A DNA stretch of 62,915 nt, filler included, from Dugesia japonica (taxonomy: Eukaryota), in NCBI GenBank assembly GCA_001938525.1. It is 6 parts of 6 records of this genome, joined end to end, with 100 filler letters (N's around TTAATTAATTAA, not from the genome) between each part and the next. Parts side by side here need not be neighbours in the genome. Positions count along the whole stretch, not along the records: positions 22,728 to 32,064 come from MQRL01639377.1; 5 more parts are not named here. One strand, written 5' to 3'. The position numbers and the translations under genes were made by a program. How positions within the stretch are numbered: position 1 is the first letter of the stretch; each line of letters opens with the position of its first letter. Positions 5,150-57,719 of the stretch are shown here, in pieces. A model generated the notes under the pieces. The model was given only the letters and a program-made list of their open reading frames with translations. It was not told the DNA's origin and ran no database searches.

Positions 5150-5443
<294 letters not shown>

Positions 5444-5457
5444 TAAGTTTTTGAAAG

Positions 5458-5737
5458 GAAACCAGAATTCAACAGTTCTGCTAAAGAAAAGGAAGAATGG
5501 ATTAGAAGTAAATATGAACGAAGAGAATTTCTACCTCCACTACCATGTCCTGGATGGCCTATTCAACAGCAACTTATTGATGCTATCACGCGAAGAGATA
5601 TACGTCAAGTTATTTTATGTTTAGCCATAGCGTCTGAGGCAGAAGTAAATGCAAGCTATAGCCGAACTGATCCCCGAGCTCCAATACATATTGCTGCTGC
5701 TATCGGCGATATTGTATCTTTACAATTACTCATATGG
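5458..5737 (+). CDS. AGAP1-like: AGAP exon: end of ArfGAP domain and first ankyrin repeat
   Basis: Follows a 48-nt intron; KPEFNSSAKEKEEWIRSKYERREFLPPLP...PIHIAAAIGDIVSLQLLIW|gtaatt. Confidence 0.93.
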
Positions 5738-5739
5738 GT

Positions 5740-5740
5740 A

Positions 5741-5786
<46 letters not shown>

Positions 5787-6454
5787 GATGAGTTTTGAGA
5801 ACTCATCGCATTATCAACATCAAAGTTTAACTCCATAAATGTATTAAAATAAAATATTAAAAAATATATTAAATAATATATTAAAAAATATAAAATTTAT
5901 TTTCAAATAAAACTACAACATCATTATTTGTTAAATCCAAACAAATTAAAAAATTCATATTTAAAAACAGAAAATACTAAATATTTAAATTCTTATTTTA
6001 TTAATATCCAAGTTTAAAACACTAAAATAAACATTTTTCATTCATTTAATTGTGTATTTTAAATATATTTTGATTATTAAGTTTTATTAATATTAAATTT
6101 TAAAACACTAAAATAAACATTTTTTATTCATTTAATTTTATTTTTAAATCTTTAAATTTAAGTAATTTATTTTATAAATTATTTTCTTGATACAAAATTT
6201 AAATATACTTTTGATTTTAATAAATTCGTTTTAAAAATAAAAAATTTAAATCTGTTTTTTAAAAAACTATCTTATATCCATCTTTNTAAGAAATTTTTTG
6301 ATCTTCTCTACGTTTCTTTCAAGACTTTTTCTGTTTGTATATTCCAGAATGTAGATTATGCCGCTCTTGGTCTTATAGGGTCCTTCATAACGATCTTGGC
6401 TCTTATTTCTTGATTCAACTTTCACTAAGATTTCATGACCAACCTTGAATTGTC
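5740..6454. repeat. (ATT)n plus LTR copy, duplicated across the N gap (second copy 6506-7260)
   Basis: Near-identical ~700 bp on both sides of gap 6455-6505. Confidence 0.85.
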
Positions 6455-6504
6455 NNNNNNNNNNNNNNNNNNNNNNNNNNNNNNNNNNNNNNNNNNNNNN
6501 NNNN

Positions 6505-6551
<47 letters not shown>

Positions 6552-6556
<5 letters not shown>

Positions 6557-9164
6557 GATGAGTTTTGAAAACTCATCGCATTATCAACATCAAAGTTTAA
6601 CTCCATAAATGTCTTAAAATAAAATATTAAAAAATATATTAAATAATATATTAAAAAATATAAAATTTATTTCAAAATAAAACTACAATATCATTGTTGT
6701 AGTTGTAATCCAAACAAATTTAAAAATTCATATTTAAAAACAGAAAATACTAAATATTTAAATTCTTATATTTTATTAATATCCAAGTTTAAAACACTAA
6801 AATAAACATTTTTCATTCATTTAATTGTGTATTTTATTATATTTTAAATATATTTTGATTATTAAGTTTTATTAATATTAAATTTTAAAACAATAAAATA
6901 AACATTTTTTATTCATTTAATTTTTTTAAAAAATCTTTAAATTTAAGTAATTTATTTTATAAATTATTTTCTTGATACAAATTTAAATATACTTTTGATT
7001 TTAATAAATTCGTTTTAAAAATAAAAAATTTAAATCTGTTTTTTAAAAAACTATCTTATATCCATCTTTNTAAGAAATTTTTTGATCTTCTCTACGTTTC
7101 TTTCAAGACTTTTTCTGTTTGTATATTCCAGAATGTAGATTATGTCGTGAACTTTCCTCTTGGTTTTATTATGCAAATAACGATCTTCCTTCATAACGAT
7201 CTTGGCTCTTATTTCTTGATTCAACTTTCACTAAGATTTCATGACCAACCTTGAATTGTCTTTTGATCAATATCTCTTTATTTTGATCATTGTGTTCTTT
7301 TTGAGAATCACTTTCGTACCATTTTTCTCTGATTATTCTCTTTCCAAATACGATTTCAACATGGCTTTCCCCGATGGTCTTCTGTTTTGTAGCATTCAAG
7401 GTAAATTCTATCTCTGGCAATACATTTATTTAAGCCCAATGTGAGGATTTCGTTTCTTTAAGTGTTGCATTATCCCGCATAATTCTAAACTGTTTCTAGA
7501 TTTGCCCATTTGTGTTATGATGATATGGACTTAAAAACCTGAGGGTATTTCCATGTTCAGCTGCGAAATCTTTCGTTGATTTATACTCAAATACCCTTCC
7601 ACAATCAACTCGAATTTCTATCGGACCACTTTAGCTGAATTAAGGAGCCGTAGATGCAAACGTTTCTTCAATTTTTTCACATACTTTCCATAAAGACTGT
7701 TGTTTAATTAACAGTTTATAATAACTTTTGTCCAATTCCGATTAGCTATGAAATCTTACTTCTGTATTTAATATCCACTTCTCCAATATTGCTTTCCGTA
7801 TGGTATCTTCATCTTGTCTTGTCATTGTTATCAAGGCTATATAAATACTTACTGCATTGATCTATTATATCGAGAACATATCTTTTTCGACCTTTTGTCT
7901 CTGACAGTGGTTCATATACATCTACAAATAACAACTCAAACATTTCGGCTGGCTGTATCTTTTTCGTTTCTTCCTTCGTTTTTGTTGTCAACACTTTAGC
8001 TTTTTGATAAGTTATACAGCTTCGGACAACCTCTTGTANNNNNNNNNNNNNNNNNNNNNTTTGCTCCACAAATATTTCGCGTTATATTTATACTTCATAT
8101 ACGCTGCTACCTTTTCTGCTCTAGCATGACACAAAAAAATTGTGTATCCTCATTATAACTTATTCCACTTTATCATCACGTATCCATGTTCCTTCATCGT
8201 TTTCGCCAAAATTGCCTTGTTTCTCTTGAATATCTTCTGTATCTAACGTACTTGTTTTTAATTTTCCACTTTTGGGATCTTCATGTGACATTAGACATTG
8301 TACACATATATCGCATTTACTTCTTGACAACATATCCGCATTTGTATAAAGCGATCCTTTTCTATATTCCAATTTTATATAATTAATCCAAGTTTGAAAC
8401 TGATGTGATCGATTTCTTGGTATTTCGCATAAAAGTGCTATATCTGTTCTGAGGATAAATCTCTTCCCATATAAGTAATGTTTGAAATGAATAGAAAGTA
8501 GTAAATTGCGAGCAATTCTTTTCGCGTAGTACAATATCCCTTCTCATGACTTGTCATTGTGTGTAACCCATATGCAAATACTATTTCTTGCCCATTGTTG
8601 TCCTTTTGAGATAGTACTGCTCCAATGTATCGAAATTCGCATCCGTGTCCAAAATAAATCCTCTATTTATATCTTGAAAACATAATATTGGAGACATCAT
8701 TAGTGCTTCTTTTATTCCATTAAAAACTAATTCTAATTCGTTCGCCCATTCAATTTTCTTGTTACTCGGCCCACAATACAGTTGTTCCAGCAATCTAGCT
8801 TTCGAATAATCTTAAATAAATTTGCGATAGTAATTGCAAATTCCCAGAAAGCTTCATATCTTAACGGATTTTAGTTTACCAAAGTTCTTAATTGCTTCTA
8901 TTTTAGTTGGATCTGTTTTGACACCTTCTTTACTAATAACGTGTCCAAAAATTTGATCTCCTTTCTCATGAATTGACATATCTCCGGATTAACTCTTAAC
9001 GCCTTCTTAATTTCTGTCAATACTTTATTGACTTTTTCATAGTGTTGCTCCTTTGTTTCAGTAAAAATATCATCGCTTCTTTTATTTTTCCGATTACTTT
9101 ATATTTTAATAAATTCCGTTTTAAAAATAAAATATTTAAATCTGTTTTTAAAAACTATCTTATA
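6552..9164 (-). mobile_element. Internally deleted Ty3/Gypsy LTR retrotransposon (RT end, RNase H, integrase, ~500-bp 3' LTR) in AGAP intron
   Basis: FILDTDA, HFKHYLYGKRFILRTD, ADMLSR, SPYHHNTNGQI integrase core; LTR start TATAAGATAG seen after a purine tract at ~7060 and again at 9164; flanked by (ATT)n on both sides. Confidence 0.88.
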
Positions 9165-9212
<48 letters not shown>

Positions 9213-9929
9213 NNNNNNNNNNNNNNNNNNNNNNNNNNNNNNNNNNNNNNNNNNNNNNNNNNNNNNNNNNNNNNNNNNNNNNNNNNNNNNNNNNNNNNNN
9301 NNNNNNNNNNNNNNNNNNNNNNNNNNNNNNNNNNNNNNNNTTATGCATGTAGTAATTTAATTTTTAAAAAATCGATTGAAATAGATATTTTGATAAAAAT
9401 AATTTTTTAATTTTAATAAATAAAAACAAAAAATCGTGTTTATAACTAAATATTTTTAAACATCAAATGAAATCTTAATACAAACCGCACAAATTACAAT
9501 ATATATACAATATATATTACAATATATGTCAAATTTTTTCTAATTTGTTGATTTTTTTATTTTCTAAAATTATATCATATTAAAAATTATTTAAAATTAT
9601 ATTATATTAAAAGTATTTATTGAAGAAACAATAGCATGGGTCATGAAAACTTGTGAACATTATTATTATTAATATTTATAAATAAATTAGAAAAATATTT
9701 ATTTGTGAAAATTTGGCTAGAATCTTATAATTATTATCAATAATTATCAATAAAGTTTTGTGTTACGCACATTATGTAATAATGCTTCATTTTTTATGTG
9801 TGTACTAATTAAAAAAAATTAATATTTTTTAAATATATTTTCAGACCTAACTGAAATTAAATGGAAATTTTATTTTTATTTGAATAAATAAATACATACA
9901 AAATAATTTGTAAAAAAAATAGTTTATAT

Positions 9930-10085
9930 TTATGGAACGGTATGTTAAAAAATGAAACGGTGCTAAATAGAGAAGTGTTAGATTTCTTCCTCAGTTAGAC
10001 TACAGAATTCTATTAAAAAATGGTATTACCAAGGTGCAAAACCGTTGGGCAAAGTGATACAATATAATGGATTTTATTTCAACGG
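9930..10085 (+). mobile_element. Mariner transposase C-terminal remnant
   Basis: EFY.NGITKVQNRWAK.IQYNGFYF (with frameshifts) resembles the mariner FYxxGIxxLxxRWxKxIxxNGxYF tail. Confidence 0.6.
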
Positions 10086-10140
10086 ATATAACTAATATTA
10101 AAAATGTTGACAAAGACGTTTTTTTTAAGAAATTGACAAA

Positions 10141-10358
10141 AATCTGTCGACGAGAGATCAAGTGAATATGGTGGATATTGTAAAATATTCCATCCAAAAT
10201 CCGATAGCTTCTGCCGAGTCACTATATTTGTGTGAGGTCTGGCCTTTCCATGGTGATATACTAATTTTCTTCACCAATTCTGGACTCTTCAGCTTGACAC
10301 ATTCATTCAATTGAAAAGTTGGTGACAGTAAACCTCGAAATTAATAGTTTCATTACTG
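10141..10358 (-). mobile_element. Mariner transposase catalytic-domain remnant
   Basis: HHGKARPHT...FGWNILQYPPYSLDLSSTDF corresponds to HDNARPH and YSPDLAPSDF. Confidence 0.8.
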
Positions 10359-11099
10359 AATAATAGCTAAAAATAAATGGTTTCATAATTACTGATAAAA
10401 AATTTCATAATCGAGTTTTACAAAAAAAATTGTTATTCTTGTAAAATTTGTTTTGCTTTTCATTGTTTGTTCGATATTTAACTTGAAAAAAATAGTTTAA
10501 ATATTAATAAAAATAAATGTTACAAATTGAAAAACTATCAATTTCAAATATTTTGAACGTTTTCTATTTTCTTACATGCATTCATGTGATAAATTAATAA
10601 GAAAATTGATATATTTTAAAGATATCTGCCTGCCTAATATTTCTCGATATTCGAAATTATACATTAATAATATATGTAATAATTAATATAATCATTATTA
10701 CTTGACATAATTTCTAGAAATAAAAGTTTTTAAAACCATCTTTTGGTAAATTTGATTTTATTTACCAATAATGTGAGCACAAAAACGTATTTCATAATTT
10801 TTATTTTTCAAGTAAATTTAAAATTTTTAATAAAAATTTAAAAATTAGTTATATCTAAAACAATCTACAGTCATACATAAAACTCTTCCAAATTTCCTAA
10901 ATGGTTGAAATAGTTATATTTTTAAAGGTTTCTAAATAAATTGTTCTAATACTTGCAATACTCTTAAATTACCAATATCAATACTGTTAAAATGAAAAAA
11001 AAATGTTGAATTTAATATTGTTTGTTTTCAGAATTTTTTAGTTTTAGCTTAATAATAATTTTAACAATTGGTGTTTTTTAGTTTTTTAGAATTATCTAA

Positions 11100-11260
11100 A
11101 GAAATGCGTATTGTCAGTTGTTGGAAACTATTCTGTGGAACCTACTTGACTAATTTCCGTCTTTTTCCAATCTGATGCATATGCAATCTTATTGTTTCTT
11201 CGTTGACATTAAATGTCAAATCAAGTTCCTGACATGTCAGACTCGAATCCGTCATTCTAT
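11100..11260 (-). mobile_element. Mariner transposase HTH/linker remnant
   Basis: DSSLTCQELDLTFNVNEETIRLHMHQIGKRRKLVK*VP: second HTH and a mutated WVPHEL linker. Confidence 0.7.
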
Positions 11261-11628
11261 ATAAATAAAAGTATTTTTTTAATAATTATATTTTGTTTCT
11301 TTAACGTTTTAGCCTTAATTTTGTGCATAAACGAAAATGGGTTAGGCTTAGCGTAAAAGAGAAATTAGGTATAATTAAATATGTTTAAGTCAATCTGACT
11401 GTTTCTTGTCAAAGAATAACCTAACTATTTTTCATATTCGCCACTTTTTACAGAATTCAAACTTGGGTGGATATTATAGGGTTTGCTGTAAGTCCAAATA
11501 TAGACTTTTTAAAGAACTGTATATTTTTAAAAAAAATTAATTGTATATTATTATTATTAATGGTATATTTTGATCGAAGCCTATTCTTATTTTAATGAAA
11601 TTATTAATGGTACTTTATTTTTATTCAG

Positions 11629-11967
11629 TATAAAGGTCAAGTAGATCTTAAAGACGTTAGTGGCCGGAATGCCTATTTTTATGCGAAAATGTATGGTCAA
11701 GATAGCACTGCCGAATTTCTTGTGAAAAATGGTTGCACTCGGCAACAAATTCCTCAATCATCAAATGTTCAACCTCAGAATATGAGCCATAACATTTCAT
11801 ATGTATCAAATACAGTTGCAGTGTCTTCAGGACCTGGATCAGTTTCAAACCGACCTCTTAACGATAATAATTTTGCATGCAACACTATGTCGAAAAAGAA
11901 TCTCTTTTCATCATCTCCTAAACAACCACCATCAGCTCAAACTACATCTACCACTAGCTCCAGATAA
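11629..11967 (+). CDS. AGAP1-like: AGAP terminal exon: second ankyrin repeat and Ser-rich tail
   Basis: ttcag|TAT phase-0 acceptor; YKGQVDLKDVSGRNAYFYAKMYGQDSTAEFLVKNGC parallels AGAP1 YGVDVTARDAHGNTALAYAR...LLQYGC; TAA at 11965-11967. Confidence 0.92.
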   Translation, partial: YKGQVDLKDVSGRNAYFYAKMYGQDSTAEFLVKNGCTRQQIPQSSNVQPQNMSHNISYVSNTVAVSSGPGSVSNRPLNDNNFACNTMSKKNLFSSSPKQPPSAQTTSTTSSR

Positions 11968-22727: not shown

Positions 22728-23941
22728 ATGACCTTTATAAAATAATAAATTACATTTATTTTCATCTGGTTTAGGATTACTATCATAATGAGAAATATAC
22801 AAAGGATAGATTTTAACTTTTGGGGTTACTTCAAATATATTTACTTTAAAATCATTTAATCTTTCAAATACTTTTACATCATCAATACTTGTAGGAAAAT
22901 TCATTCCGTTTATTTTTAATTCATTTAAATAAGGAGTATAATTTGTAACTCTATTTTGATTATTTTCAAATACATGTTTATGAGCTAAAATTGAATATAG
23001 AAAACAAAAATCATATTTATTTGTAGTATTAATTACACTTGATTTAATAAATGGTCATTTTTTATAAGTCGTAGAGTGGACCCCGGCTCCAACTAATGAT
23101 TGATATTTAGAAAGTTCAATTTTAAAATTGACAATACAATCCAAATTCCATCTACTTTCATTTTAATCTTCATCTTCCATGTATCTTTGAAGTTGATTTA
23201 ATAACTCTTCCACAATAATTTTTATATCGCTTTTGATAGTAATTCTTTCATTATTTGAATATGAATTTAATACTCTTTCCTCATCTTCTTTAGTATAATT
23301 ACAGTTTACATTTAAACGTAACATNNNNNNNNNNNAATAATCAAAATAAATATCAACAATTTTAGTAATTTCTTTTTTAAACCAAGTTATTAATTTAAAA
23401 TTTAATTTTTGTATATTTCTAGTTAATTCAGTTTTACTTTCTTTAAAATATTCAATTTTATAATACTTAATATTTTTAAATGTTTAAATAATTTTTGAGT
23501 TTCATTCTTTTCAAAATCAATTGCTTCGTCTCCAAGTAATTCATCAAATAATTTTTTAGTTTCTTCTTCATTCGATTTTAAAACACGCTCTTGGTGTACT
23601 CCACTATCAAAATGAGATCTTGCATGGTTTTGTCTAGTGAATGTTAAATTGCAATAATTACAATTTAAGTCAACTCTAAACCTACCATCAATTCCACAAT
23701 TCGTGGAGTTTTTATGCAACCGCAAGCCGCTTTCACTTGCTAATCTTTTGAAACAAATATTACATGTGTAATAATTGTGTACCAATCTTGCACAGGTTCG
23801 AGATTGAATATGTGACCACAACCCCGCGTTAATTTTAAAAGTCTTGTTACAAACCGAAAATTTAAAAATTAATGCTGAAACTCTCATAGGTCTTTGAAAA
23901 TTCATATTTGAGATTTGCGATTCACTTGCGAAGCTACTCAT
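22728..23941 (-). pseudogene. Polinton/Maverick-like (adintovirus-like) pPolB N-terminal region preceded by three zinc fingers; decayed, cut by contig end
   Basis: Zinc fingers in ORF 23423..23941, then LNVNCNYTKE..SYSNN..EDED*NESRW..KYQSLVG..VIN..DFCFLYSILAHKH..RVTNY..GMNFPTSIDDVKVFERLN..VNIF..LLFYKGH with two in-frame stops. Confidence 0.8.
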
Positions 23942-23978
23942 TTTATAAATAAATAATTTGGTTGTATAAAAAAAATAA

Positions 23979-24649
23979 CTACCTTAAAGGTTCTAATTTT
24001 GAGTTTGAAGTTTTTACTGTGTAATTTGCTAAATCGCTTTTAGCTGCGTAAACTCTTTTTATCTCTCCTTCATATTCTTTCGGAACTTTTAATCTTCGTA
24101 ATCTTTCACATAAATCATCACTAATTTCTTTTATTTTTTTAGCAATAATAATACAATCTTCATTTGTAATAATTAGATCATCATCTTCTTCCCATTTTAT
24201 CAATGTAAGTTTTAAACCTGGATGTTCAATAAATTTTNNNNNNNNNNNNNNNNNNNNNNNNNNNNNNNNNNNNNNNNNNNNNNNNNNNNNNNNNNNNNNN
24301 NNNNNNNNNNNNNNNNNNNNNNNNNNNNNNNNNNNNNNNNNNNNNNNNNNNNNNNNNNNNNNNNNNNNNNNNNNNNNNNNNNNNNNNNNNNNNNNNNNNN
24401 NNNNNNNACTTAATAATATTTTAAACTTTTCACTATCATTAAAATTTTCAACTTGTAAATACATTTCCTTTAAAAGAGCTACATATTTTTTGCTGTTTTA
24501 TTTGCAATTTCACATTTGGCAAAACTTTCAATTTCCATGAAAGTAAATTTTTCAAGATTTACTAAATTATTTATACTATTATATAAAGTATTTATACCCA
24601 AAACTTCTTGTTGTTTTGGTTTAAGAACAACTTGTTTTTAACTAACCAT
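23979..24649 (-). pseudogene. Uncharacterised intronless ORF immediately upstream of the ZnF/pPolB-like gene
   Basis: ORF 23979..24464 is protein-like and appears extendable to an ATG at 24649 through a stop and a probable frameshift; its stop lies 37 nt before the next ATG. Confidence 0.5.
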
Positions 24650-27449: not shown

Positions 27450-28410
27450 ATTGATGGAGTGGCTATGGGCTCTCCTTTGGTTCCGACATTAGCGTCGATT
27501 TTCTTGAATAAGCTTGAAGAACGAATGAACTTGTATTCTTTGAATAAGTCTATTATTTACAAAATATATGTTGACGTTGTTTTCCTTATTTTTGGTAATC
27601 GTGAACATGTTTTGTCTTTTAAAAGTTTTATGAATTCATTACATCCTAATATTAGATGTGGGATATTAAAGGAGGGAAGAAATGGTATTTTGTCTTTTTT
27701 GGATATTTTAATAGAAAGGAAATCAACACATTATGAGGCTGAAATATACAGCAAAAAAAGTGATACTGGCTTGTATGTTATCCCTAATAGTTTTTGTGAT
27801 TCTGCTTATAAAAATAACATGATAAAGGGTTTAGTATTTTGTTCTTGGTCGTTGCCCTCAACTTATTCAAAATTCATTAAAAGCATAGAACATTATTTAA
27901 AGCAAGCAAATAGATATAATAAACAATTTCTAAATTCATTGACTTCGCAGACAATTGACAATATTGATTTCGATAAAAAGATTGAAAATGTATTGAAGCA
28001 TCTTGAACCTGATAAAATTTTATCAAACTGTATTGGGCAATTTGTTTTATCGATCCCATACACCAATTGGTTGTGTTGGTTTGTTTGTCGATTTCAATGT
28101 AATAAATGTGATGCCACACACATTGGAGAGACTTCCCGTCATCTCTGTACAAGGGTTCAAAAGCATAATCGTTTTGATGGTGTTAGTAATATTGCTGAGC
28201 AAAAAAAATTAAGTAATTGTAATGCAAAAAGTTGTTAAAAAATTTTTAAAATTAAGAATTTTAATTTAAAAATTTAGAATTATAGCCGTCTTATATTCAG
28301 TATAACCGCATTAATCTTTCTTTGAATAATACAGACTGAATGAACTCATTTTTTTAATTTTTGTCTGATTATTACAGTTGATTCGTCGAAATATATAACA
28401 ATAAAGTTTT
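27450..28410 (+). mobile_element. 5'-truncated Penelope-like element (RT C-part and GIY-YIG endonuclease)
   Basis: G(V)AMGSPLVPTLASIF, KIYVDVVF (RYVDD), LSFLDILI, FQCNKCDATHIGETSRHLCTRVQKH. Confidence 0.92.
28361..28401 (+). ncRNA. Degenerate minimal type I hammerhead ribozyme in the Penelope pseudo-LTR
   Basis: ttgt-CTGATtA-ttacagttgattcgtc-GAAA-tatat-A-acaa: stem I ttgt/acaa, palindromic ATATAT stem III; core G8 and stem II mutated. Confidence 0.55.
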
Positions 28411-29475: not shown

Positions 29476-30142
29476 TTAGGTTGATAACTTAGTATTTTGG
29501 ATTTTTTAAGAGTTAGTATAACTTTTACATTAAACATTATTTCGTATTACATCATTTTAATGTAAAGATATTTTATATTTAAATTTAATGTATCAATATT
29601 CGTGAAATTTATTTTTTTAGTTTCAAACATGTCAAAATTCGTACCAATATTCGGGAAGTATTATTTTTTTGTTTTAATCAAAACAAAAAAGTTGCTGAAA
29701 GTTTTTGGTTTAAACGTTTGCAATGTGATGATTTTGATGTCAGTGTTAAAGAACGTTCTGGTCAACCAAAGAAATTTGAAGAAGAAGATTTGGAAGCATT
29801 ATTGAAGGAAAACTGAGCTCAAACAGAAAAGGAACTTTCAAAACAGTTAAATTTCACTCAAGCAGGCATAAGCAAAATGATTCTAAATGAAGGAAAATGA
29901 ATACCACATGAACTAACACAAGACAACATTGGAAATCGTTTAAAGGTTTGCAATTCTTTGATGATAAGAAATCTTAGATGGCACTATCGCAACGAATTCT
30001 GACTGGTGATAAAAAATGAATTTATTACTATAACCCAAAAAGCAAAAATATTGGATTCATCCAGTCGAGCCATCAACGTCAATACCAATAAACATTCATG
30101 GAGGCTATGATGTGCATTTGGTGGGATCAGAAAGAAGTGTTA
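29476..30142 (+). mobile_element. Mariner 5' portion (Mos1-like), decayed
   Basis: TA|TTAGGTTG TIR-like start; MSKFVP; ERSGQPKKFEEEDLEALL; *IPHELT; ILTGDKK*IYYYNPK; MCIWWDQ. Confidence 0.88.
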
Positions 30143-30191
30143 TAAGTAATGAATATATACTATTTAAGACCATAGGGGTACATAACCTTCG

Positions 30192-30270
30192 AAAAATTTA
30201 GAATGAAAAATCTAGAATGAAATATCTAGAAGGAAAAATCTCGAAATCTCGAATGAAATATTTAAGAGGA
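30192..30270. repeat. Short tandem array (~14-bp unit aatctagaatgaaa) upstream of the Polinton-like ZnF ORF
   Basis: About five degenerate units visible. Confidence 0.7.
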
Positions 30271-30360: not shown

Positions 30361-31242
30361 ATGAGTGAAAAAGATATACACAGATGGCCTAATTGTAGAA
30401 AGCTATTTAAAAATTTAGCTGGCTAATGGGACATGCAAGATCTAGAACTTGTTTTAGAAATGGAACATCATTTCAATGCGAGAAATGTCATCGACCATTT
30501 AAAACGGAAAATGGTTTGAGAGAACATTTAAATTCATCACTTTGTGGAAATNNNNNNNNNNNNNNNNNNNNNNNNNNNTTTTGCAATAAAACATTTTCTA
30601 GACAAAATTTAGCAAAGGCACATTACAATTCTGACAAACACAAAGAAAAAGTTAATAGAATTTTTTTGGTCAATTACCAGGTGAAGAAGCAATTGATTTT
30701 GATCCAGAAATTAGAGATCTGTTAAGACAATATAGAGATTATGAAATTGAATATTTTATGGAAAGTAAAGTATCAATGAAAAAAAATGTGGAAGAATTAT
30801 ACGACACACCAGTTAGAGATATTAACACATTTCAAAATGAAGTTAAAGAAATTATTACAAAGTATTTTAATTATGGAAAAAAGATTATTATAAGTATGTC
30901 AGTAAACTGTAAATATACAAAAGAAATAAATAGTGAAAATGTTGAGAAAAATTTTAAATCATATTCAAACAATAAAAGATTTATTATTCAAACTGATATT
31001 GAAAATGGTGTTAATGAAATATTTAATGAATTACAAAGATATATTGAAGATGAAGATCGTGAAGGATCAGGATGGACAATGACACATATTGTGGATTACA
31101 AAATTGATCTTTCTAAATATCAATCATTAGCTGGAGCTACATATTGTACATTACCATTTCACAAACAAGGTGTAATTAACATAGAAAATAAAGATGATAA
31201 TAAATGTTTTCTTTATTCGATTTTAGCACATAAACATTTACT
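30361..31242 (+). mobile_element. Polinton/Maverick-like triple-ZnF plus pPolB N-terminal region, copy 2 (frameshifted)
   Basis: ATG at 30361; zinc fingers; EDREGSGW..KYQSLAGATYCTLP..VINIENKDDNKCFLYSILAHKH. Confidence 0.82.
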
Positions 31243-31379
31243 NNNNNNNNNNNNNNNNNNNNNNNNNNNNNNNNNNNNNNNNNNNNNNNNNNAGATGATT
31301 CTGTCATTGACGGAGTCTGGAGAACTCCTGAAAAGCAGTGAAATCTCTTTAAATTGAAAATAATTAAAAATCAAAACAA

Positions 31380-31538
31380 TTTATGGTAACCACAATGACC
31401 TTGACCTAGTTTCCGTTGCTAAGGTGGTTGCCATGGTAACCAAAAACCTCGATACCGTTGCTAAGGCGGTTGCCATGGAAACAGGGGGTCCCCCACCTCT
31501 TGACCTACTTTGTCCTCGTGTCCTCCTATCTATCTACT
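31380..31538. promoter_or_regulatory. GC-rich island with two RFX X-box palindromes and a DR0 element; candidate element terminus
   Basis: GTTGCCATGGTAAC 31427-31440, GTTGCCATGGAAAC 31469-31482, TGACCTTGACCT 31396-31407, GGGGGTCCCCC, ending CTATCTATCTACT. Confidence 0.55.
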
Positions 31539-32064
31539 TATTAAAAATTTCAAGATGAAGTTAGAGAAATAATTACAAAGTATTATAATTATGGAAAAAA
31601 GATTATTATAAGCATGTCAGTAAACTGTAAATATACAAAAGAAATAAATAGTGAAAATGTTGAGAAAAATTTTAAATCATATTCAAACAATAAAAGATTT
31701 ATTATTCAAACTGATATTGAAAATGGTGTAATTGAAATATTTAATGAATTACAAAAATATATTGAAGACGAAGATCGTGAAGGATCAGGATGGTTAATGT
31801 CACATATTGTTGATTACAAAATTGATCTTTCTAAATATCATTCATTAGCTGGAGCAACATATTGTAAATTACCATTTAGAAAACTCGGTGTAATTAACAT
31901 AGAAAATCAAGATGATAATAAATGTTTTCTTTATTCGATTTTAGCACATAAATATGTACTTGAGCTTCCAACACGTGTAAGTATTTACAATCCACATTTA
32001 ACAGAATTAAAATATAATGGTTTTAAATTTCCCATGAACATTGATGATATAAAAAAATTCGAGA
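31539..32064 (+). mobile_element. Polinton/Maverick-like pPolB N-terminal region, copy 3 (5'-truncated, open to contig end)
   Basis: About ten amino-acid differences from copy 2 over the shared ~115 aa; continues RVSIY..LKYNGFKFPMNIDDIKKFE. Confidence 0.85.
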
Positions 32065-32951: not shown

Positions 32952-33194
32952 GTACTAAATAATTATGCAGTTTGTTGTTTGTATCTTAAAGAAGTTCAAG
33001 AAGCTATATGTATTTTAGAAAATTTACTTCAACGTGGTATTCGAAATGACGGAATTATATTTAATTTATGTATTTTGTATGAATTACAAACTAGTCAAAT
33101 AAAAAGTAAAAAATTGAAAATCGTTAAAAGCCTTGCTCAATTCCCAGGCGATGATTTCAATATTGCAAGTTTCAAATTATCTAATATGGACTGA
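32952..33194 (+). CDS. TRAPPC12: Terminal exon of trafficking protein particle complex subunit 12 (TPR C-terminus)
   Basis: tttag|GTA; VLNNYAVCCLYLKEVQEAICILE...IIFNLCILYELQTS..KK...PGDDFNIASFKL parallels human NNAAVCLLYLG...VLFNLTTMYELES...EGDSFNTQCLKL. Confidence 0.9.
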   Translation, partial: VLNNYAVCCLYLKEVQEAICILENLLQRGIRNDGIIFNLCILYELQTSQIKSKKLKIVKSLAQFPGDDFNIASFKLSNMD

Positions 33195-34253: not shown

Positions 34254-35608
34254 CCCTTAACCGCCCAGCAGTGTCTCAGAGACACTGTTTAAATTTCGAT
34301 TTCATAGTACATCTAAAGTTTTGAATGCATACAAAGTAAACATCTTCTAATTTATCACTATAATCTTGTCAACCAAAATTACTTATTGAAGTCATTCAAA
34401 TCAAATTATTACTTTGGCAATTAATAAACGGTTATAAATGTGACACAAAGACCCAGGTGTGTCTGATAGATAGTGTTATAAGGTTAACAGTAATAAAATA
34501 ACCTTGGTGATGTAATTTACTTACACAAATAACTATAAATATAATTTCAATAAATATTGTAAAAAATGTAAGTCAAATCTTATTACTTAAAATCAAATAA
34601 TTTAGACATTTAGAAGTTATTAATAATTTTGGTTGTAACCGAGAAGGAGCTGCTAATTGTATTACATGACTTATATCATGATAATAATTCTGAAAGTGAC
34701 AACTAAGATTTTATCCCAGAAGTAGAAAGTGAGATTGAAGACAATTTTACAGAGGTTGGATCAGAGAAGTGATGAACAGACATGCAGTGACAATGAATAT
34801 CTCCCAACAGAAGAGAAACATGTTTCAAAATCAATTGTCCAATATTTAGGTCCAGACAATTTTCAGCCAATTAGAGGACGAAATATTGAAACTAATATCT
34901 TTGTATTCTGCAAAAAAATGACCTTAGTTTCATATGTTCCAAAAAATAACAGAGCTGTTATTTTGTTATCTACTATGCATCAAAGCAAACAATTTGATGC
35001 TAACTACAAAAATAAATAGGAAATTAATATTTATTATAATAAAACAAAAGGTGGTGTTGATATATGCTTGATATTGTTGGGATCACATCTTTTGTAATAT
35101 AGAAAAAATTGTAGAAGGAAAGTAAAATGCACAGAGAAAACTTTTTCTACGAGAAATAGCAGCCGAATTAGTCAGTCCTCACACTCAGAGACGAGGAAAA
35201 AAGGGTTAACTGAGTTCCACTTGAAAGCCATGTCGGATATTGAAAGTACAAGTCAACAGCAGTTTGAAGATTCAATCGTAAAAGAATCCGCAGTAAAAAG
35301 AAAAAGGTGTCACATGCNNNNNNNNNNNNNNNNNNNNNNNNNNNNNNNNNNNNNNNNNNNNNNNNNNAAAAGAAAAAGGTGTCACATGCCCGTGAAAAAT
35401 TGCAAGGAATTCAAAACAATGTTTAATACATGTAATCAAAACGTTTGTCTTGAACATTTTACAAAAGAAATTCAATGCAAACAGTGTTCTTCTCTGTAAT
35501 AAAAATAAATTTTATTATTTTTTGTTATAATTTAAAAGATTTTCTATNTAGTGTCTGTCAGACACTACTGNGTGGTTTTGGTACAAAAGCTTTTTGGGCG
35601 GTTAAGGG
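34254..35608 (+). mobile_element. Internally deleted piggyBac transposon with both ends
   Basis: TTAA|CCCTTAACCGCCCA ... TGGGCGGTTAAGGG|TTAA (14-bp perfect TIR); subterminal GTGTCT..AGACAC palindromes; SYVPKNNRAVILLSTMH, YYNKTKGGVD and a Cys-rich C-terminus. Confidence 0.96.
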
Positions 35609-35761
35609 TTAATTAATTTTTTCTTAATATTTTCTCGCTTTTATTTCCAATAATTTTAATCAATTTAAATACATTTCAGAATTTTTTCATTATTTTAATT
35701 AATCACCAGTCTTCTTTTTTGTGGGTCTTAATTATTTTTTGTTATTTAATATTATTTTTGG

Positions 35762-36199: not shown

Positions 36200-38650
36200 T
36201 CCTGAAACCAGATTTTAATGATGATGGTATGCGACAGTTAGTTGAAAATTATGAAAAAACGATGACATGGAGGAAAAATCATCAGTCAAAAAGTTATCAT
36301 ATTCTGAAGTGGCAGCAGCTAATTACCGCCTAATTTCAAATAGGATGGATACAAGAAGAATTAACGGTCGGAATTACATGCAAATTCCGGATAGGCCAAT
36401 GACATCAAGGCCAGCTCCTGTTGTTAATGATCCAGAAAGAAATTCTCAAATTCGATACAAAAGCAAATCCAGAGAAATTCGCCGACGACATCACTGAAGA
36501 TGATTGCCAGGAAACTGTAAAATCAATCAAAAGGTTTTCAACCTCCAAAAAAAGAAATTTTGAGGACCGTTTTGTGTTTTTCTTGTGGTTCAATATGACA
36601 TTTCCGTAATAGTTTTGCTCCTCAAAGATTGTTGTTATAATTTGTGGAAAATCGGGACATAAATTTAGAATTTGCAGACTGTTTGGGAAATATCACCACA
36701 GAAGCGATGTTAGATGCATTGCGAATGAAACTAATGTAAATGATACAATAGATGTGATTTGCGATGAATTGGATGAAGTAGAGCATGATGTGAACTATTT
36801 AAACAAAAAGCACTTCACTGTTCCAATTTCGTCTGGGGAGTCAAGACAGCAGGAACAAATCAAAATTGAAATTTAAACGTAGAATTCATTTAATATAAAA
36901 GCTTAAATCAAAATTTAGGTTTTAATTATTGATATTGGATAACAAATCGATATNNNNNNNNNNNNNNNNNNNNNNNNNNNNNNNNNNNNNNNNNNNNNNN
37001 NNNNNNNNNNNNNNNNNNNNNNNNNNNNNNNNNNNNNNNTTAAATGAATTCTATAAAACGATCAATGGTTAAGTCCAACAATTATTCTCGCAATAATTGC
37101 AATTGTTAAATGTAGAAGACGAGATGTATGTGAAGAGCGATGGAAGAATTTAGAGCGTGGTTAAAGTGAATAGTAGAGATGAATAGATGTTATGGGACAC
37201 AGGAGCATCGATTTCAGTAATGGATAGGAATGTTTGGAAAAGATGTAAATCCTTTCCATTGGAAAATTCAGAAATAAAATTAAAAGGAGCATTTTCGATG
37301 GCAACCGTTAAATACTTAAAAATTGAGTACAATAATATGAACGCGGTAGTACAGAGTATAAGCCCAAAGTTTATTGGTGGAATAGACATGTCCAAAGTTT
37401 TCAATATTCAATTAAAAATGATTGGATTAATCAAGTCAGATAATGTAATATGTAATGTTTCTGATGAGGATCATTTAAGAATCACTATGGACGATATCAA
37501 ACCAAAAGATGACACCTTGAAAAAATTGTTAACACGTTTCACCTCGATATTCATGGCGCATATGTTTGACCTGGGTAAAACATACCTAGTTAAATATCCT
37601 ATCCAAAAACGGGAAATCCTGTCTCACAACAGCCAAGACAAAACACTTGTCAAAAGCGGCATTATAAAGAAATGCAGTAGCCCATAGAACTCACCTATAG
37701 TGATTGTTAACCAAAAGAATGGATCTATTCGTATGTGTCAGGATTTCAGATTATTGAATGAAGCAACTTATTAGTTTTCGTTTACTATGCCAGATCGTCA
37801 AATGTTACTCGATCATCTTAGTAAGTGCACCATATTCTCAATTCTAGATATAGGCCAAGCGTTTTATCAAGTCGAACTAAAATAGGAGAATAAAATTAAT
37901 ACCGCTTTTTTACAAAGAAAGGCCAGTACTGCTATAATCGCATGCCATTCGGACTATCAATCGATCTAGCTGCGTCTCAAAGATTAATGCATATAATTTT
38001 GTCAGTTATTCTATTTAAAAGCGTTGTAGTTTAAATCGATGATATTCTAATCTTTGTGAAAATTCTTAACGATTCCTTCCAATAAACCAAAAGATTATAA
38101 ACCAATAAACCAAATAAACCAATTTGGATTAAAACAAAATTCGGAAAAAGTCAAGGAGGTTGTTTATGCTAGAATTCCAAAAAATTGCAATCTTTTCTTG
38201 GAGTGACTAACTATTACAGAAAATTTATAAAGAATTTATTGCAACTTGCTACACCTCAATATGCTACTACAGAACGTCAAAAGCACAAGATAATATAGAC
38301 AAACGAATGCAAGACGAGTTTCTTGAAAATTAAGGAAACTCATTGCAATTATCCAGTATTGGGGTATCCTAATTTAGAAGATCAGTTTATCCTAGATACT
38401 GGTGCCAGTTTTTCGGGAACTGCTGCTGTACAGAGCCAATCACAAAACGGTATGGAAGTCGTAATAGCATATGGATCAAGGTTTTTGAAAGCATATAAAA
38501 AATGATATTGTGTGATCAGCAAGAAGTTATTGGCTCTTTATGAATTTATTCCACATTTTCAGCATTATCTTTATGGGAAAATCTTTGTCTCAAAGACCGA
38601 CCACAAAACTTTAGAGTTTATAAAGAATTCGATAAGACCAATTATGCCTA
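36200..38650 (+). mobile_element. Decayed Ty3/Gypsy gag-PR-RT-RNase H
   Basis: CYNLWKIGT/CGKSGH knuckle remnant, LWDTGASISV protease, KNGSIRMCQDFR, *IDDILIF, FILDTGAS, KTDHK. Confidence 0.9.
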
Positions 38651-38699
38651 ACTAATTTTGTGAACAAAATTCATAGAGATTTATGCCATATTGGAATAA

Positions 38700-41600
38700 A
38701 GAAAACAATAAAATATGTATCTGCCAAAAATATTTTGCAGAGGGAATTATCTAGAGAAGTTTTTTTGAGGTGAAGAACATCATTATTAAGAAAAAACAGG
38801 AGCGTTTGATAACATGTATGCTAGAGGAAGATCTAATGGAAGCATAAGTGAAACCATTGAAGAAAGCAGACGGATATCAAGAGAGATTGCGATTAGCTTT
38901 TGAGAACAAGAGAGATGTAATAAAAGATTTACAGAATCTTGTTAATTGTCGTCGTGGTAGTGAAGAACTTGAGGTGTTTTTTAAAAAAGTAGAAAATTCG
39001 GTCGATAAATATTTAGCAAACGAGGAGCTTACGAAAGAAAAACTATTGTTAAAAATGCTAATAATGTTTGCAGATAGTAAAAACGCAGAAGCGGAAATAA
39101 TCTTGCCAAAATTGGAAAAAGTTGAAGATATAAAAAATATTGATTGACAAAATAGAAAAAATAGAATCTATTATTGTAGTAAAGAGGTACGCGGATGTAA
39201 CACGTGGAGAACGTACTGGAGAGAGAAGACAAAATATCGACAAAGTTTCTAAAAGAACAGAAACACAATGTTGGACATGCCAGAATTATGGGCATACAAA
39301 AGGAAAGTATCCAAAATATTCTCATGTGGAATGTTGGACTTGTCACAAGAAAAGGCATTTAAGTAGAAATTGTCCAGACAAGAAACCACCAAAATCTTTT
39401 AGTTGTGGTAAGATTGATTATATCAGAAGGATGTGCACAAAAATTGTATGTAGTAGATGTAAAAGTCTGTATCACAGAGCGAAAGAATGTTATTCGAACA
39501 TTAATAAACCAATATTAAAAGAGAGAAGATACAATTCTAAAAGCGGACAACAAACAAAAGAGTGTAGTAAGACTAAATAAATCCATAACATTCAAGAAGA
39601 CAATGAAGATAAGAATGAAGATATATTTTCTGGGAGCATAAAAGTAAATGAAAATCCAAGAAGAGAATACCCAAATGTCAGAGCTCCATCAGTAGAAGAG
39701 TTGGTCAGAGCCATTTATTAAAAGAGATACTGTTTGAATATCCTTGAGATGCCGAGAAATTGGATAAGACGAGTANNNNNNNNNNNNNNNNNNNNNNNNN
39801 NNNNNNNNNNNNNNNNNNNNNNNNNNNNNNNNNNNNNNNNNNNNNNNNGATAGGAATAATTGAAAAGAAACAAAACGTAGAAATTTCGTATGATAAGATG
39901 CAAGGGAGACATAGCATTTCAGTGATGATCAAGGGTGAACAGTTTGATTTTTTGTTAGATACATGAGCAAGAATAAATGTGATGAGCATGGAAGAATTTG
40001 TGAGAATCGGAGAAACAATGTTAAAAAAAAGCGAGAAACGATAGCATTGCGCGAATAACAGCTCATTGGAGACGATTGGAAAGATACGTGTCGAATTTGT
40101 AGTTTCAGAGGTGTGCAAGGAACTAACATTTATAATATTAGAGAAATTAATACCAGATCTAATTATTGGAATGGAATTTTAGAATACTTTTGGGTATCAA
40201 CTGCAAAGAATTTGCGGAATAGACATCAATAATCATCGAAAAAAATTTGTTTGCAATATCGAGGGAAAATTTGGAAGGCAAATACATACGGGTGAACGAT
40301 TGAGACATGCAATGGAGTTTTTAGAAATTAACAAAGATCATAGATTAACTGTGATTATTCAAAATAATGAGGATGTATTTATGGCGGATTAATGAGACAT
40401 TGAATGCACACACTTAACGAAGCATCAAATAATCACTAACGGAAGTCCAGTCAACATAAAACCGTATTGTCAACCAATGAATTTAGAAGAGAAGATTGAA
40501 GAGACCATCAAGAACCACTATGATAACAGCATTATCCATAAGTGTAATTTCCAATGGAATACGTCATTAATCTACGTTTGGAAAAAGGAAAAAAGTATAC
40601 ACAATTATGCTTAGACTTTAGACAGCTCAATGCAATAACAGAAAGACTAAATTTTCCTATGCCAAATGTGGACAAAATGTTGGATGCTTTGGAAGGTACA
40701 AAGTATTTAAGCTCAATAGACCTGAGAAAAACATACTATTAAGTGGAACTCAGTGAAAATTCTCAAGAGAAGACAGCGTTTTCTACTAAACAAGGACAAT
40801 TTGGTTTCAATAGAATGCCTTTTGGAATTGCAGAAGCACCAGGTACGTTCCAGAAAATGATGAATAAAGTGATCTGAAAAATAAAAGTAGCGATGGTTTA
40901 TCTAGACGATATTCTCATATTTACCGAAACAAAAGAGTAACACTATGAAATAATTAATAAAGTATTAACAGAAATTAAGGAGGTTGGTCTAATGTTAATC
41001 CGGAGAAATGTGAATTTATGCAAAAAAAGGAGATCAAATATTTAGGATACGTTATCAATAAAGATTGTTTCCAAACAGATCCAACTTAAAAGGAAGTAAT
41101 TAAGATATTTAGTAAACCAAACTGCGTTAAGAAGTTGAGAAGCTTTTGGGAATTTGCAATTACAATCACAAGTTTATTAAATATTATTCGAAGAAGGCTA
41201 GATTGCTGGAACAACTGTGCAGTGGGCTGAGTAACAAGAAAATTAAATGGGCGGTCGAATAAGAAGAAGGTTTTAATTGGGATGAAAGAAGCACTAATGA
41301 TGTCTCCAATATTATGTTTTCCAGATATAAATAGAAGATTAATTTTGGACACGGATGCTAGTTTTAATACGATTGGGGCAGTACTATCTCAAAAGGACAA
41401 CAACGGGCAAGAAAGAGTAAATGCATTAGGGTCACACGCAATGACGAGTCATGAGAAAGGATATTGTACTACGCGAAAAGTATTACTCGCAATGTACTAC
41501 TTTTGTATTCATTTCCAACATTACTTATATGGAAAGAGATTGATCCTGAGAACAGACCATAAAGCTATCACTTTTAGGCAAAATACCAAATTGCCGATCA

Positions 41601-42119
41601 CATCACAGTTCCAAACCTAGATTAATTATTTGAGCAGTTTACATATAAAATTGGAATATAGAAAAGGATCCCTTCATACAAATGCGGATATGTTGTCAAG
41701 GAATGAATTCGGTACATGTGCGCAATGTGTAATGTCTAATGAAGATCTCAAAAGTAGAAAATGAAAAACAAGGATGTTAAATACAGTAGATATTCAAGAA
41801 AAACAATGCAATTTTGGTGAGAATGATGAAGAAACATGGATACCTGAAGTATCATGCTGGAGCAGAAAGGGTAGCAGCGTATATAAAGCAAAAGTATAAC
41901 GCGAAACATTTGTGGAGCAAAGTACAAGAGGTTGTTTGAAGCTGTATATTATTCCAGAAAGCTAAAGTGTCGACAGCAAAAACGAAGGAAGAAACAAAAA
42001 AAGACGCAGACAGTCGAAATATTTGAGTTGTTATTTATAAATGTGTGTGGACTACTGCCGGAGACAAGAGGTCAGAAACCATATGTTCTCGTTGTAATAA
42101 ATCAATGCAATACGTATGT
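38700..42119 (+). mobile_element. Decayed Ty3/Gypsy gag-pol; same family as 6552-9164 and 54607-57645
   Basis: Gag with four knuckle motifs, FLLDT*A protease, CLDFRQLN, YLDDILIF, LDTDAS, RTDHKA, integrase HHCC remnant. Confidence 0.93.
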
Positions 42120-42223
42120 TAGGGTTTTACCCTAGGTGGGTTGAATTCTTGTATGATTTAAATCTAAGGGGTTCAAACTTTATATAAAATGAAGTCTAGG
42201 GTAATTGACCTGGTAAAACCCCA
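42120..42223. mobile_element. ~104-bp MITE-like element truncating the Gypsy integrase
   Basis: tagggttttacc ... ggtaaaacccca inverted ends; no clear TSD. Confidence 0.45.
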
Positions 42224-54345: not shown

Positions 54346-54606
54346 TATTATATTCTTTTTTTCTTTCATCTTTCCGCTTATTAATAATGTAATATTTTAA
54401 TTAATTAATTAATATTTTATTTATTTAGATTTTGCTCAATTTTAATGCTCAAGACAGTGCTCAAACATACACATGCATACACATACTTAAATTTACATAT
54501 TTACATTATTTATCACAAATAATTATCATTATTCTTTCATTTTACAGTTTTCAATTAATTTCATATTTTATTGGAATGTAAATTTACTTAGCCTTAACAT
54601 TATGAT

Positions 54607-57600
54607 TTGCAAAATGAATTAACAATTGAAGATTTACCTAACATGGTGACAGCGGTAAATATCAATTCTATTCCAGAGAGGTTATTACAAAAGATGTTGT
54701 GCAGAGGAGATGATATTAAGAAATTCATCAAGCGGTGCGAATTGTATTTTGAAGATAAAAACATCACCCAGATAATGCAATATGAGAGACTAGTCTCTTG
54801 TTTGCTAGATGAAGATTTGTTGGAAGAATATGCAAAGACTTTGAAATAAGTTGACGATTTTCAGGCTCGCTTACGTATGGCATTTGGGAAAGAGAAAGAT
54901 GTTATCAAAGACATTCAAAATTTGATTAACTACAGGCGTGGAAATGAAGAAATTCAAGTTTATTTTAAAAATGTAAAAGATTTAGTAAAAAGATTATTTA
55001 CAAATATAGATTTTACTAAAGGAAAAATGGTAGTCAAGATGCTAGTATATTGTTCAAATAACAAAAAAGTTGAAGAATAAGTGACTTTGCGGAAACTAGA
55101 TAATATAGAAGAAATTGAAGAAACAATGACATTAGTAGATCGAGTAAATGAAAACATAGATTGAGTTAATGCAGTTAGAAGTTACGCGAGAGTTACAAAT
55201 CGAAATTATCAGAAACATGTAAATCATACAGTGAATAGACATGTGGAGAAAAGAAAAGAAAAACAAAATATCGAATTTTGGTTATGTCATAAGATCGGCC
55301 ATACTAAAGCAAATTGTCCGACAAAAGGTGGTAGAGTGCAGGAGTGGTCAGATAACAGGACATATAAATTGAGATTGTCCAAATAAAAAACCAGCAAAAT
55401 GTTTGGGTTGTGGAAACGTTGGCCATATTAGAAGGTTATGTCAAGAAGTGAGGTGTCAACGATGTGGTAATGGTGGACATAGGACACACAAATTTGAAAA
55501 TGAAAAGAACAGGTGAGTAATGTATGACTTTAGAAAAATCAGGAAACCGATATATTAGAGTACATGCAATTGAAGATGAAGATGCCAGTACAAATGATGG
55601 ATATAAGAAATTATATGAAAGTGATTCTGAAAGGGAATACCCAGAATAATTCTTTTAGTAATTATCCTCAAGAGGTCGAAAAGTGGGATGATATCCCAAA
55701 GGTTACAGAAAAAGTATACAGGTTCTGAAAGAGAGAAAATTTTGCGGAGGATAGAAAAGTAGAATGGGTTGGAACAATTGAAGCAGAACAGAAAACAAAT
55801 ATTTCATATCATAAATTGCAAGGCAGACCAGGTGTTACGGTATCAATTCAAGGAAATAAACTCGAATGCCTATTAGATACAGGGGCTTGAATTAACGTGA
55901 TGAGTTTGAGTTGTTTTAATAAATTACGAGAAGTTCATTTAGTAATGAGTGATGAAAGATTGCGTCGTACAAACGATAGTACACTTGAAAATGTTATGAA
56001 AGTTAGAAATGAAGTGATAAGTGATGAAGTTTGCAAAGAGATTACTTTCTTAGTTGCAGAAAGACTAACACCAGATCCGATAAGAAGAATAGATATGCAG
56101 AAGACTTTTAGATATCAGCTGTGCAAAAGATTCATAGCAAAGCGGATGAAAAAGTTGAAAATTACATTTGCAATATTGAAGCGAGATTTGAGAGACAAAT
56201 TAAAAAAGGAGAGCGATTGACAAGAGCCTTAAATATTTTGAAGATTAAAGAAGATCAATGTTTATTGAAAATAATTGAAAGTAAAGAAGATGCTTTTATG
56301 GCAGATAAATGGGATGTAGGACCCAAACATCTGATAAGACACAAAATAATCACAAGTGGTGAACCAATCAATGTAAAAAAGTATAGACAACCAATGAACT
56401 TAGAATTGAAAATTGAAGAAGCTATCCAAAATCCTTTCGAGAATAATATTATCCGGAAATGAAACTCTCTATGAAATACCCCACTAATTTGTGTTTTGAA
56501 AAAAGAAAAGACGGACATAAGAATATGTTTGGATTTAAGACAATTGAATGCCGTAACAAAAAGACAAGCCTTTCCGATGCCTAATGTCGATGAAATGCTG
56601 GAAAAATTAGATATAGCCAAATATTTCAGTTCAATGGATTTACGAAATGCACACTATCAGGTAGATCTCGAAGAAGAATCTCAAGAAAAAACGGCGTTTT
56701 CAACGAAACATGGACACTATTGTTTTAATAGAATGCAATTTGGCATCGCAGCGGCACCAGGGACATTTCAAGAGATGATGACAAAAGTAATTTGCAAAAT
56801 CAATGGAGCCATGGTTTATCTTGATGACATTCTGATATTTGTGAACAATAAAGATCAACACTCTATAGTAATTGACAGAGTATTGATGGAAATAATGAAG
56901 GCTAGTCTAAGAATTAATAAAGAAAAGTGTAAGTTTCTTCAAAACGAAATCGAATATCCTGGACACATAATTTCCAGGGATGGTGTTAGAACTGATCCGT
57001 CTGAAACTGAGGAAATAAGAACATTTGGCAAACCTAATTGTGTTAAAGAAGTTACGAAGTTTTTTGGGAATTTGTATATATTATAGGAAGTTTATAGAAA
57101 ACTACTCAAGAAATTCAAGGATATTAGAGCAGTTGTATAGCGGACTAAGCAACAAGACATTAGAATAGAAAGATGAAATAAACGATACTTTTGAGAGTCT
57201 AAAAAACGCTAATGACGGCGCCTATATTGTGTTTTCCAGGTATAAACAAAGCATTTATATTTTTGTGCCAGTTTAGATACAATTAGACCAGTATTGTCAC
57301 AAAGAAATAAAGTAGAAAGAGAAAGAGTGGTTGCTTATAGTCAAACTCAATGACGAGTCATGATAAGGGATACTGCATTACACGAAAGAAATTATTGGTT
57401 GCTTATTATTTCTGCATGCATTTCAAACATTACTTGTACGGTAGAAGATTTACTCTTAGAACAGATCACAAAGCTCTAACTTTCATGATGACGACAAAGA
57501 AACCAATTACGTCGCAATTCCATAAATGGATTAGTTATCTGAGTAGTTTAGACATGGTTTTGGAATATATAAAAGGAATTCAACATGCTAATGCAGATAT

Positions 57601-57645
57601 GTTATCTAGACCGAGATGTGAGTTATTTGTACAGTTGAATATTTA
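54607..57645 (+). mobile_element. Decayed Ty3/Gypsy gag-PR-RT-RNase H
   Basis: Gag similar to ORF 38848, knuckles, CLLDTGA, CLDLRQLN, YLDDILIF, RTDHKAL, HANADMLSR. Confidence 0.93.
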
Positions 57646-57719
57646 AAAAAACTGAATATTTGTTTAAATATTGTTTTTTAAGATTCAGTTATATTTTGAA
57701 CTTATTAAATAAACTTGTT

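Follow-up and report, generated by a model that had tools for sequence, protein, structure and literature searches.

Judged by its sequence, the segment at positions 31293 to 31538 of the Dugesia japonica DNA analysed here (the window, 62,915 nucleotides at its full length) is a real element end, probably of the Polinton/Maverick family, and it carries a striking, family-wide array of sites that resemble those of host transcription factors, with RFX X-boxes and half-sites alongside nuclear-receptor elements. We found no earlier description of the motif array in the literature searched, and the end as such may already be catalogued. The original prediction had placed a candidate terminus at 31380-31538. 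Its outer limit at 31538 is retained, but its start is not, as 31293-31379, further inward, belongs to the same high-copy element, and 31293-31538 is probably most or all of the terminal inverted repeat. The features referred to below are as follows.

30361-31242, plus strand: pPolB copy 2, with a zinc-finger start, broken; holds the empty site at 30820
31243-31292, no strand: 50-N scaffold gap of the overlap type
31293-31538, minus strand (read inward): high-copy element end, from summed contig depth; its interior falls in the 50-N gap
31305-31307, minus strand: ATG, 232 bp in from the end and preceded by an AT-rich stretch; a candidate for both the start codon of the outermost gene and the inner border of the repeat
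31383-31391: ATGGTAACC, containing the RFX half-site GTTACC (31385-31390, minus strand)
31396-31407, minus strand: DR0, AGGTCAAGGTCA (TGACCTTGACCT on the plus strand), containing TCAAGGTCA
31415-31424, plus strand: RFX half-site GTTGCTAAGG, one copy per 42-bp unit
31427-31440, plus strand: full RFX X-box, a perfect fit (14/14 bases) to GTNRCC-N0-3-RGYAAC
31457-31466, plus strand: RFX half-site GTTGCTAAGG, fitting GTTRCY
31469-31482, plus strand: full RFX X-box that departs from the published consensus at a single base, 57-70 bp from the end
31484-31494, no strand: GGGGGTCCCCC palindrome, varying among copies
31501-31506, minus strand: nuclear-receptor half-site AGGTCA (TGACCT on the plus strand), 33-38 bp from the end
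31526-31538: terminal motif CTATCTATCTACT on the plus strand, that is 5'-AGTAGATAGATAG read on the minus strand
31539-31544, plus strand: TATTAA, predicted 6-bp target-site duplication, uninterrupted at 30820-30825 in homologous pPolB
31539-32064, plus strand: pPolB copy 3, the target, a decayed piece of a Polinton-type protein-primed polymerase

The end at 31538 is marked by an end motif, a break in homology and a step in summed contig depth, and the proposal that the terminal repeat of one element was inserted into another holds in so far as an end lies inserted in the middle of pPolB. As had been noted, pPolB copy 3 begins mid-gene at 31539 (31539-31960 aligns with 30820-31242 at 93.9%), and TCTACT, a word with a frequency of 0.0002 per position in the window, stands directly before the point at which homology to the uninterrupted pPolB resumes (31539/30820). 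Polinton/Maverick ends are of the form 5'-AG...CT-3' with a short terminal repeat, and AGTAGATAGATAG on the minus strand has this form. AGTAGA is entered 28 times and TCTACT 23 times in the end-motif table for vertebrate Mavericks (PMC8097293 supplement), and AGTAGA//TCTACT ends are recorded for pit-viper Mavericks, several of them with perfect 6-bp duplications (PMC8097293). A short AG(T) repeat at the terminus would suit jumping-back initiation of protein-primed replication. Because the homologue at 30820 provides an empty site, TATTAA is the predicted target-site duplication, of which one side only is present in the window. No second copy of the element end was found within the window, nor any integrase or capsid gene tied to it. 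The link to Polintons proposed for this end is sustained by the end motif, which is on record, but not by the adjoining pPolB, which is the target and not the cargo.

All of the motifs named in the original prediction are present in their places, with units of 42-bp period starting at 31413 and 31455. Five RFX-type sites lie within 100 bp, namely two X-boxes 42 bp apart and three half-sites, and AGGTCA repeated without a spacer forms a perfect DR0 at 31396-31407; the TCAAGGTCA inside it is a candidate NR5A/ERR-type site. Read inward from 31538, the order is AGTAGATAGATAG at 1-13, a receptor half-site at 33-38, GGGGGTCCCCC at 45-55, an X-box at 57-70, a half-site at 73-82, the second X-box at 99-112, a half-site at 115-124, the DR0 at 132-143 and a half-site at 149-154, followed by an AT-rich stretch and the ATG at 232. 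The consensus against which the sites were read is GTNRCC-N0-3-RGYAAC for the X-box and GTTRCY for the half-site (bioRxiv 2022.11.11.515474). With at most one mismatch, GTTRCCATGGHAAC gives four strand-matches (two sites) against 0.06 expected, a number reached in none of 100 shuffles, and the DR0 is matched once against 0.03 expected, which 3 of 100 shuffles reach. All four GTTGCYAWG words in the window fall inside the island. Its GC-richness was also correctly described, for at 49% GC it is the highest of any 159-bp stretch in a window of 27% GC. The island folds no better than shuffled sequence (z 0.51), which suits a double-stranded protein-binding array, and an Rfam search of 31200-31700 gave no match at E<=1.

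Other classes of end were considered and set aside. Helitron 3' ends have CTRR with a hairpin just inside, and were rejected given a terminus of TCTACT and the fold score of z 0.51. In piggyBac and Kolobok elements the TTAA target adjoins the element end directly; here the flank is TATTAA, so that TTAA does not lie directly at the terminus. Hairpin and structured-RNA readings were rejected on the same z score and the lack of Rfam matches.

Other copies of this end are represented in public sequencing runs, four of the 24 listed (contig sets X1, X2 and X8 and one RNA run) having been compared with 31293-32064. The median summed contig depth of the island relative to the adjacent pPolB is 9.8x, 17.0x and 17.8x in X1, X2 and X8 respectively, a ratio that is no copy number, and the contrast is present in all three contig sets. 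High depth spans 31293-31379 as well, and in each of the three sets it falls 20- to 50-fold across the bin 31527-31552, implying an end at about 31534 (X1), 31534 (X2) and 31527 (X8) at a resolution of 26 bp. None of the 24 contig pieces listed, from about 8000 in all, bridges 31538, and the loose ends listed exclude those at the junction (414 further rows).

Within the array, 35, 60 and 7 contigs together with 30 RNA reads diverge from the window copy beyond 31482, and in these the place of GGGGGTCCCCC is taken by another DR0-like plus X-box unit. Extra DR0 units are found in other copies also before 31394, and some of the extra units may be inner units aligned out of register. The loose ends after 31482, together with a dip in depth in the bin 31475-31500, indicate that GGGGGTCCCCC varies and is not common to most copies. 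None of the 14 variant places found among 40 of 139 rows falls in a motif, the motifs making up 75 of 246 positions; the associated P of 0.005 is naive, as repeat units can cross-map. The expectation that the motifs are conserved among copies is partly supported for the DR0 and X-box units, of which other copies carry further ones, and fails for GGGGGTCCCCC. At the inner side, loose ends before 31304 and 31314 (one or two contigs each in X1, X2 and X8) have the ATG at the same offset, and those before 31304 depart, as judged by eye, from the window copy right inward of the ATG; that the ATG is kept and followed by divergence is a hint that the repeat ends at the start codon of the first gene. 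Several window alleles are absent from the runs, whose source is accordingly a relative at the level of strain, species or subfamily. In the RNA run there were 89 reads, which derive for the most part from other copies and carry no information on cell type; 85% run on into unlike sequence and none lies on the last 38 bp, and a single read, at the far end, lies on the pPolB part. No RNA holder was found among the runs listed (best share 0.42).

The pPolB target is one of three pieces in the window, which cover the N-terminal part of the polymerase only. Copy 3 has 33% identity with the polymerase P0003 (1466 aa) over residues 347-523 of the latter. There are 1148 pPolB relatives at E<=0.001, and among 12 long ones DNA_pol_B_2 was found in four and Endonuclease_7 in seven; Pfam named neither the window pieces nor the polymerase domain of P0003. 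The 151 ORFs from 18 viral relatives match only the three pPolB pieces in the window and no other Polinton gene. Copy 3 goes out of frame with copy 2 within the first 10 nt, and the 24 differences between the two are distributed 7/8/9 by codon position (clustering P 0.10), a spread that fits neutral decay.

Copies 2 and 3 may be the empty and filled forms of one site, as alleles or close paralogues. A same-strand duplicate ends at the gap edge in four of the five gaps of exactly 50 N, compared with one of the 24 other gaps, and the gap at 31243-31292 is the sole one of those four whose right-hand duplicate starts more than a few bases on, the island being the intervening 246 bp. Since the duplicate meets the gap edge with the island between, copy 2 is probably the empty form of the site and not a separate neighbour. 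The insertion target may have been a chromosomal fossil or a sister copy during replication. Apparent tandem duplications flank 50-N gaps at 5741-7260, 35296-35389 and 59685-61092 also, and probably reflect haplotype contigs that overlap rather than true duplication. Elsewhere in the window, copy 1 (22728-24500, minus strand, with the pPolB part at about 22730-23980) is an N-terminal piece with C2H2 fingers and 67-68% DNA identity to copies 2 and 3, which has an ORF without a name upstream and no X-box end nearby, and a short degenerate repeat of the type GAAAAATCTAGAA lies at 30190-30270, upstream of the start of copy 2.

The explanation that we favour, while putting its chances as a whole a little short of even, is that a Polinton-family end carries a host-factor array acting as an inward promoter-enhancer. 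In this model a high-copy Polinton/Maverick-family element, autonomous or not, would have inserted at TATTAA into an older, decayed pPolB. Its last 13 bp or so would be the replication and integration end, serving protein-primed initiation and the integrase after the model for the family (PMC8097293), and the next 140 bp or so would form a modular array of RFX X-boxes, half-sites and DR0 sites, with a number that varies between copies. Host RFX dimers and a monomer-type nuclear receptor would bind the array, which when bound would switch on the outermost genes from both ends and so tie activation to the state of the host cell. Binding of host factors is, from the motifs, somewhat better than an even chance, and inward promoter use is the most likely role that we would assign to the array. 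The promoter-enhancer reading draws on two independent host motifs that are close to consensus, repeated and apparently protected across copies. It also takes into account how loosely the sites are spaced, how far they lie from the end, and that an AT-rich stretch and an ATG follow downstream.

A more specific version, in which the terminal repeats would be a host-operated switch that fires inward only in cells running an RFX programme (sperm-forming or ciliating), we regard as doubtful. Conservation of RFX reaches far beyond ciliated cells and includes fungi (bioRxiv 2022.11.11.515474), and as RFX is not confined to such cells the inference of cell type is only a lead. In S. mediterranea, Polintons are repressed by piRNAs and gain H3K4me3 and RNA as stem cells become epidermis or brain (PMC8532177), and they sit in the B compartment (PMC10558129); this opening in differentiation fits a host-factor trigger and names none.

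Other explanations of the array have to be weighed. One is that the island terminates a gene-less derivative, or else some unrelated high-copy DNA element ending by chance in CT, with the motifs as inherited passengers and any effect falling on neighbouring host genes. The depth of 10-18 times that of pPolB exceeds the 2-fold excess that autonomous copies would give, no gene of the element could be connected with the end, and the RNA reads (85% of 89 entering unlike sequence, none on the last 38 bp) point the same way. However, the six terminal bases are a recorded Maverick motif, part of the depth excess could be due to pPolB lineages too distant to align (as copy 1, at 67-68%), and a non-autonomous Polinton derivative would still have its end from an autonomous parent, so that we hold this explanation to be unlikely. 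Rather improbable, too, is that the repeats of a Polinton end are bound by the element's own proteins (zinc fingers, integrase or packaging machinery), which would make their resemblance to sites of RFX and receptors incidental or secondary, for two separate motifs lie near a host-factor consensus, one of them at 14/14, which a private motif would rarely do. Nonetheless related polymerases begin with C2H2 fingers, and the unit number varies between copies, as it does in transposase-binding sub-terminal repeats. In adenovirus, viral proteins bind the packaging repeats near the end, where the host receptor COUP-TF and Oct-1 also bind without a packaging role (PMC5033970).

Host RFX and receptor could alternatively be replication helpers that load the polymerase on the terminus, like NFI and Oct-1 in adenovirus, where an Oct-1 site is said to stimulate replication. 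Adenovirus helper sites lie within about 50 bp of the end, whereas the first X-box here is 57 bp from it, and spacing and unit number vary, which an origin needing exact geometry would tolerate poorly. Such a role, for which the position of the sites within a terminal repeat beside a jumping-back type of end can be cited (PMC8097293), is in our view distinctly unlikely. With the first X-box at this distance and the array pointing at an ATG 232 bp in, an adenovirus-type origin looks less likely than a promoter. Crt1, RFX1 and GCNF have repressor roles, and a further suggestion is that host repressors of this kind (RFX1/Crt1-like, GCNF-like) keep the element latent until stress or differentiation; this would accord with the conservation of RFX well beyond ciliated cells, fungi included, and with the finding of no more than one RNA read on pPolB, at its far end. 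It is very unlikely, though, given that piRNAs already explain the silencing of planarian Polintons (PMC8532177). Finally, the junction might be an assembly chimera of a collapsed repeat and a pPolB contig, in an assembly that is fragmented (29 gaps of 10 N or more) and with no listed contig piece bridging the junction. As the join coincides with a canonical end motif, the two sequences share no bases upstream of TATTAA, and the whole lies inside one gap-free contig (31293-32064), we consider a chimera highly improbable.

Compared with known systems, the element has the same AGTAGA//TCTACT end motif as Polinton/Maverick terminal inverted repeats, and at a length of at least 235-246 bp its end lies within the range of 46-1447 bp given for Polintons (PMC8097293), which are known in this host group (PMC8532177, PMC10558129). 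Its dense, variable RFX and DR0 array, in contrast, was found in none of the published descriptions searched and is absent from 18 viral polymerase relatives. Non-autonomous Polinton derivatives likewise have many ends relative to polymerase genes. The adenovirus ITR and left-end control region similarly combines a short-repeat, protein-primed end with host transcription-factor sites beyond it, and the nuclear receptor COUP-TF binds near the left end (PMC5033970); the adenovirus factors are NFI and Oct-1, whereas in the present element the sites are further in, their number varies and the element is integrated. Ciliary-gene promoters share the perfect X-box consensus and the GTTRCY half-sites, but here five sites stand in a mobile-element end, interleaved with receptor sites and with no adjacent host gene start. 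Sites for tissue-specific host factors are common in LTRs.

Searches elsewhere gave no second example. The loci of the 18 viral relatives, found with alignment A1 and mostly without element ends, contain no X-box in 216,950 bp and no DR0; P0001 as a single query found no viral locus. In viral contigs, scans for the composite motif gave no hits, the end 17-mer gave four hits sharing nothing further, and paired X-boxes gave four and two hits, none with pPolB. A metagenome scan returned 19 hits, all single isolated matches without pPolB, and a prokaryote-genome scan two isolated matches, also without pPolB; animal DNA makes up little of these three collections, which therefore say little about other animal Polintons. 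An RFX/DR0 array in the ends of Polintons or other transposons was not found in the literature searched (Repbase and subscription papers lying outside it), including the available portions of PMC6431247, bioRxiv 2023.08.22.554363, 10.64898/2026.01.28.702291, PMC8363768 and PMC4357725. Neither 'Schmidtea' nor 'planarian' nor any of four motif words occurs in the 3,999,981 characters of the adintovirus paper supplement (PMC8502044), and no literature was found on RFX1/EF-C in polyomavirus replication.

A few of the loci retrieved in these searches are of interest in themselves. In the polymerase relative L035, AGTAGA at 72-77 starts a GC-richer stretch after an (AAT)n flank, without X-boxes, and has the look of a Polinton-like end that became integrated. 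An unclassified 40-kb viral contig (L049, shared with L045) has three X-box-like palindromes, at 10001, 10044 and 13367, of which the search pattern had picked out two but not the third; all are intergenic, 35-104 bp before an ATG, with no pPolB in the stretch examined. In a giant-virus contig (L048, 10001-10067), two X-box-like sites lie in a 53-bp tandem repeat upstream of an ORF.

A terminal repeat with sites for two families of host factor offers a direct handle on the timing and the cell type of Polinton activation in animals. Particles of animal Polintons have not been observed, according to the available text of PMC8097293. Planarian Polintons open on differentiation into epidermis and brain, for which the available text of PMC8532177 gives no sequence cause. 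Were the RFX switch true, a host trigger and a cell type would for the first time be named for the replication of any animal Polinton. Should the array be functional, its many copies would also distribute portable enhancers for RFX and the receptor across the host genome; should it not be, this is an ordinary transposon end.

The remainder of the window contains host exons and other mobile elements. The exons at 1408-11964 and 32952-33191 comprise those of an ArfGAP gene with PH and ankyrin parts (AGAP/centaurin-gamma type) and a last exon that resembles TRAPPC12, for which Pfam gave weak hits only. An ArfGAP exon shows 68-70% identity with named tapeworm proteins and 91% with one that has no name, which makes the host a flatworm; the 27% GC and the repeat content suggest a planarian. 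A piggyBac-like element at 34254-35612 has inverted TTAA-CCCTT ends around an interior that is decayed. Decayed pieces at 27450-28235, 29560-30150, 36250-42200 and 54600-58900 are mariner-like or, as labelled from their translations, Penelope-like and (several) Gypsy-like. At 61940-62100 a GC-richer stretch with two CCAATCA...TACGTAGCCACTT units terminates in CTACTATCTACCTACT, and is possibly another element end.
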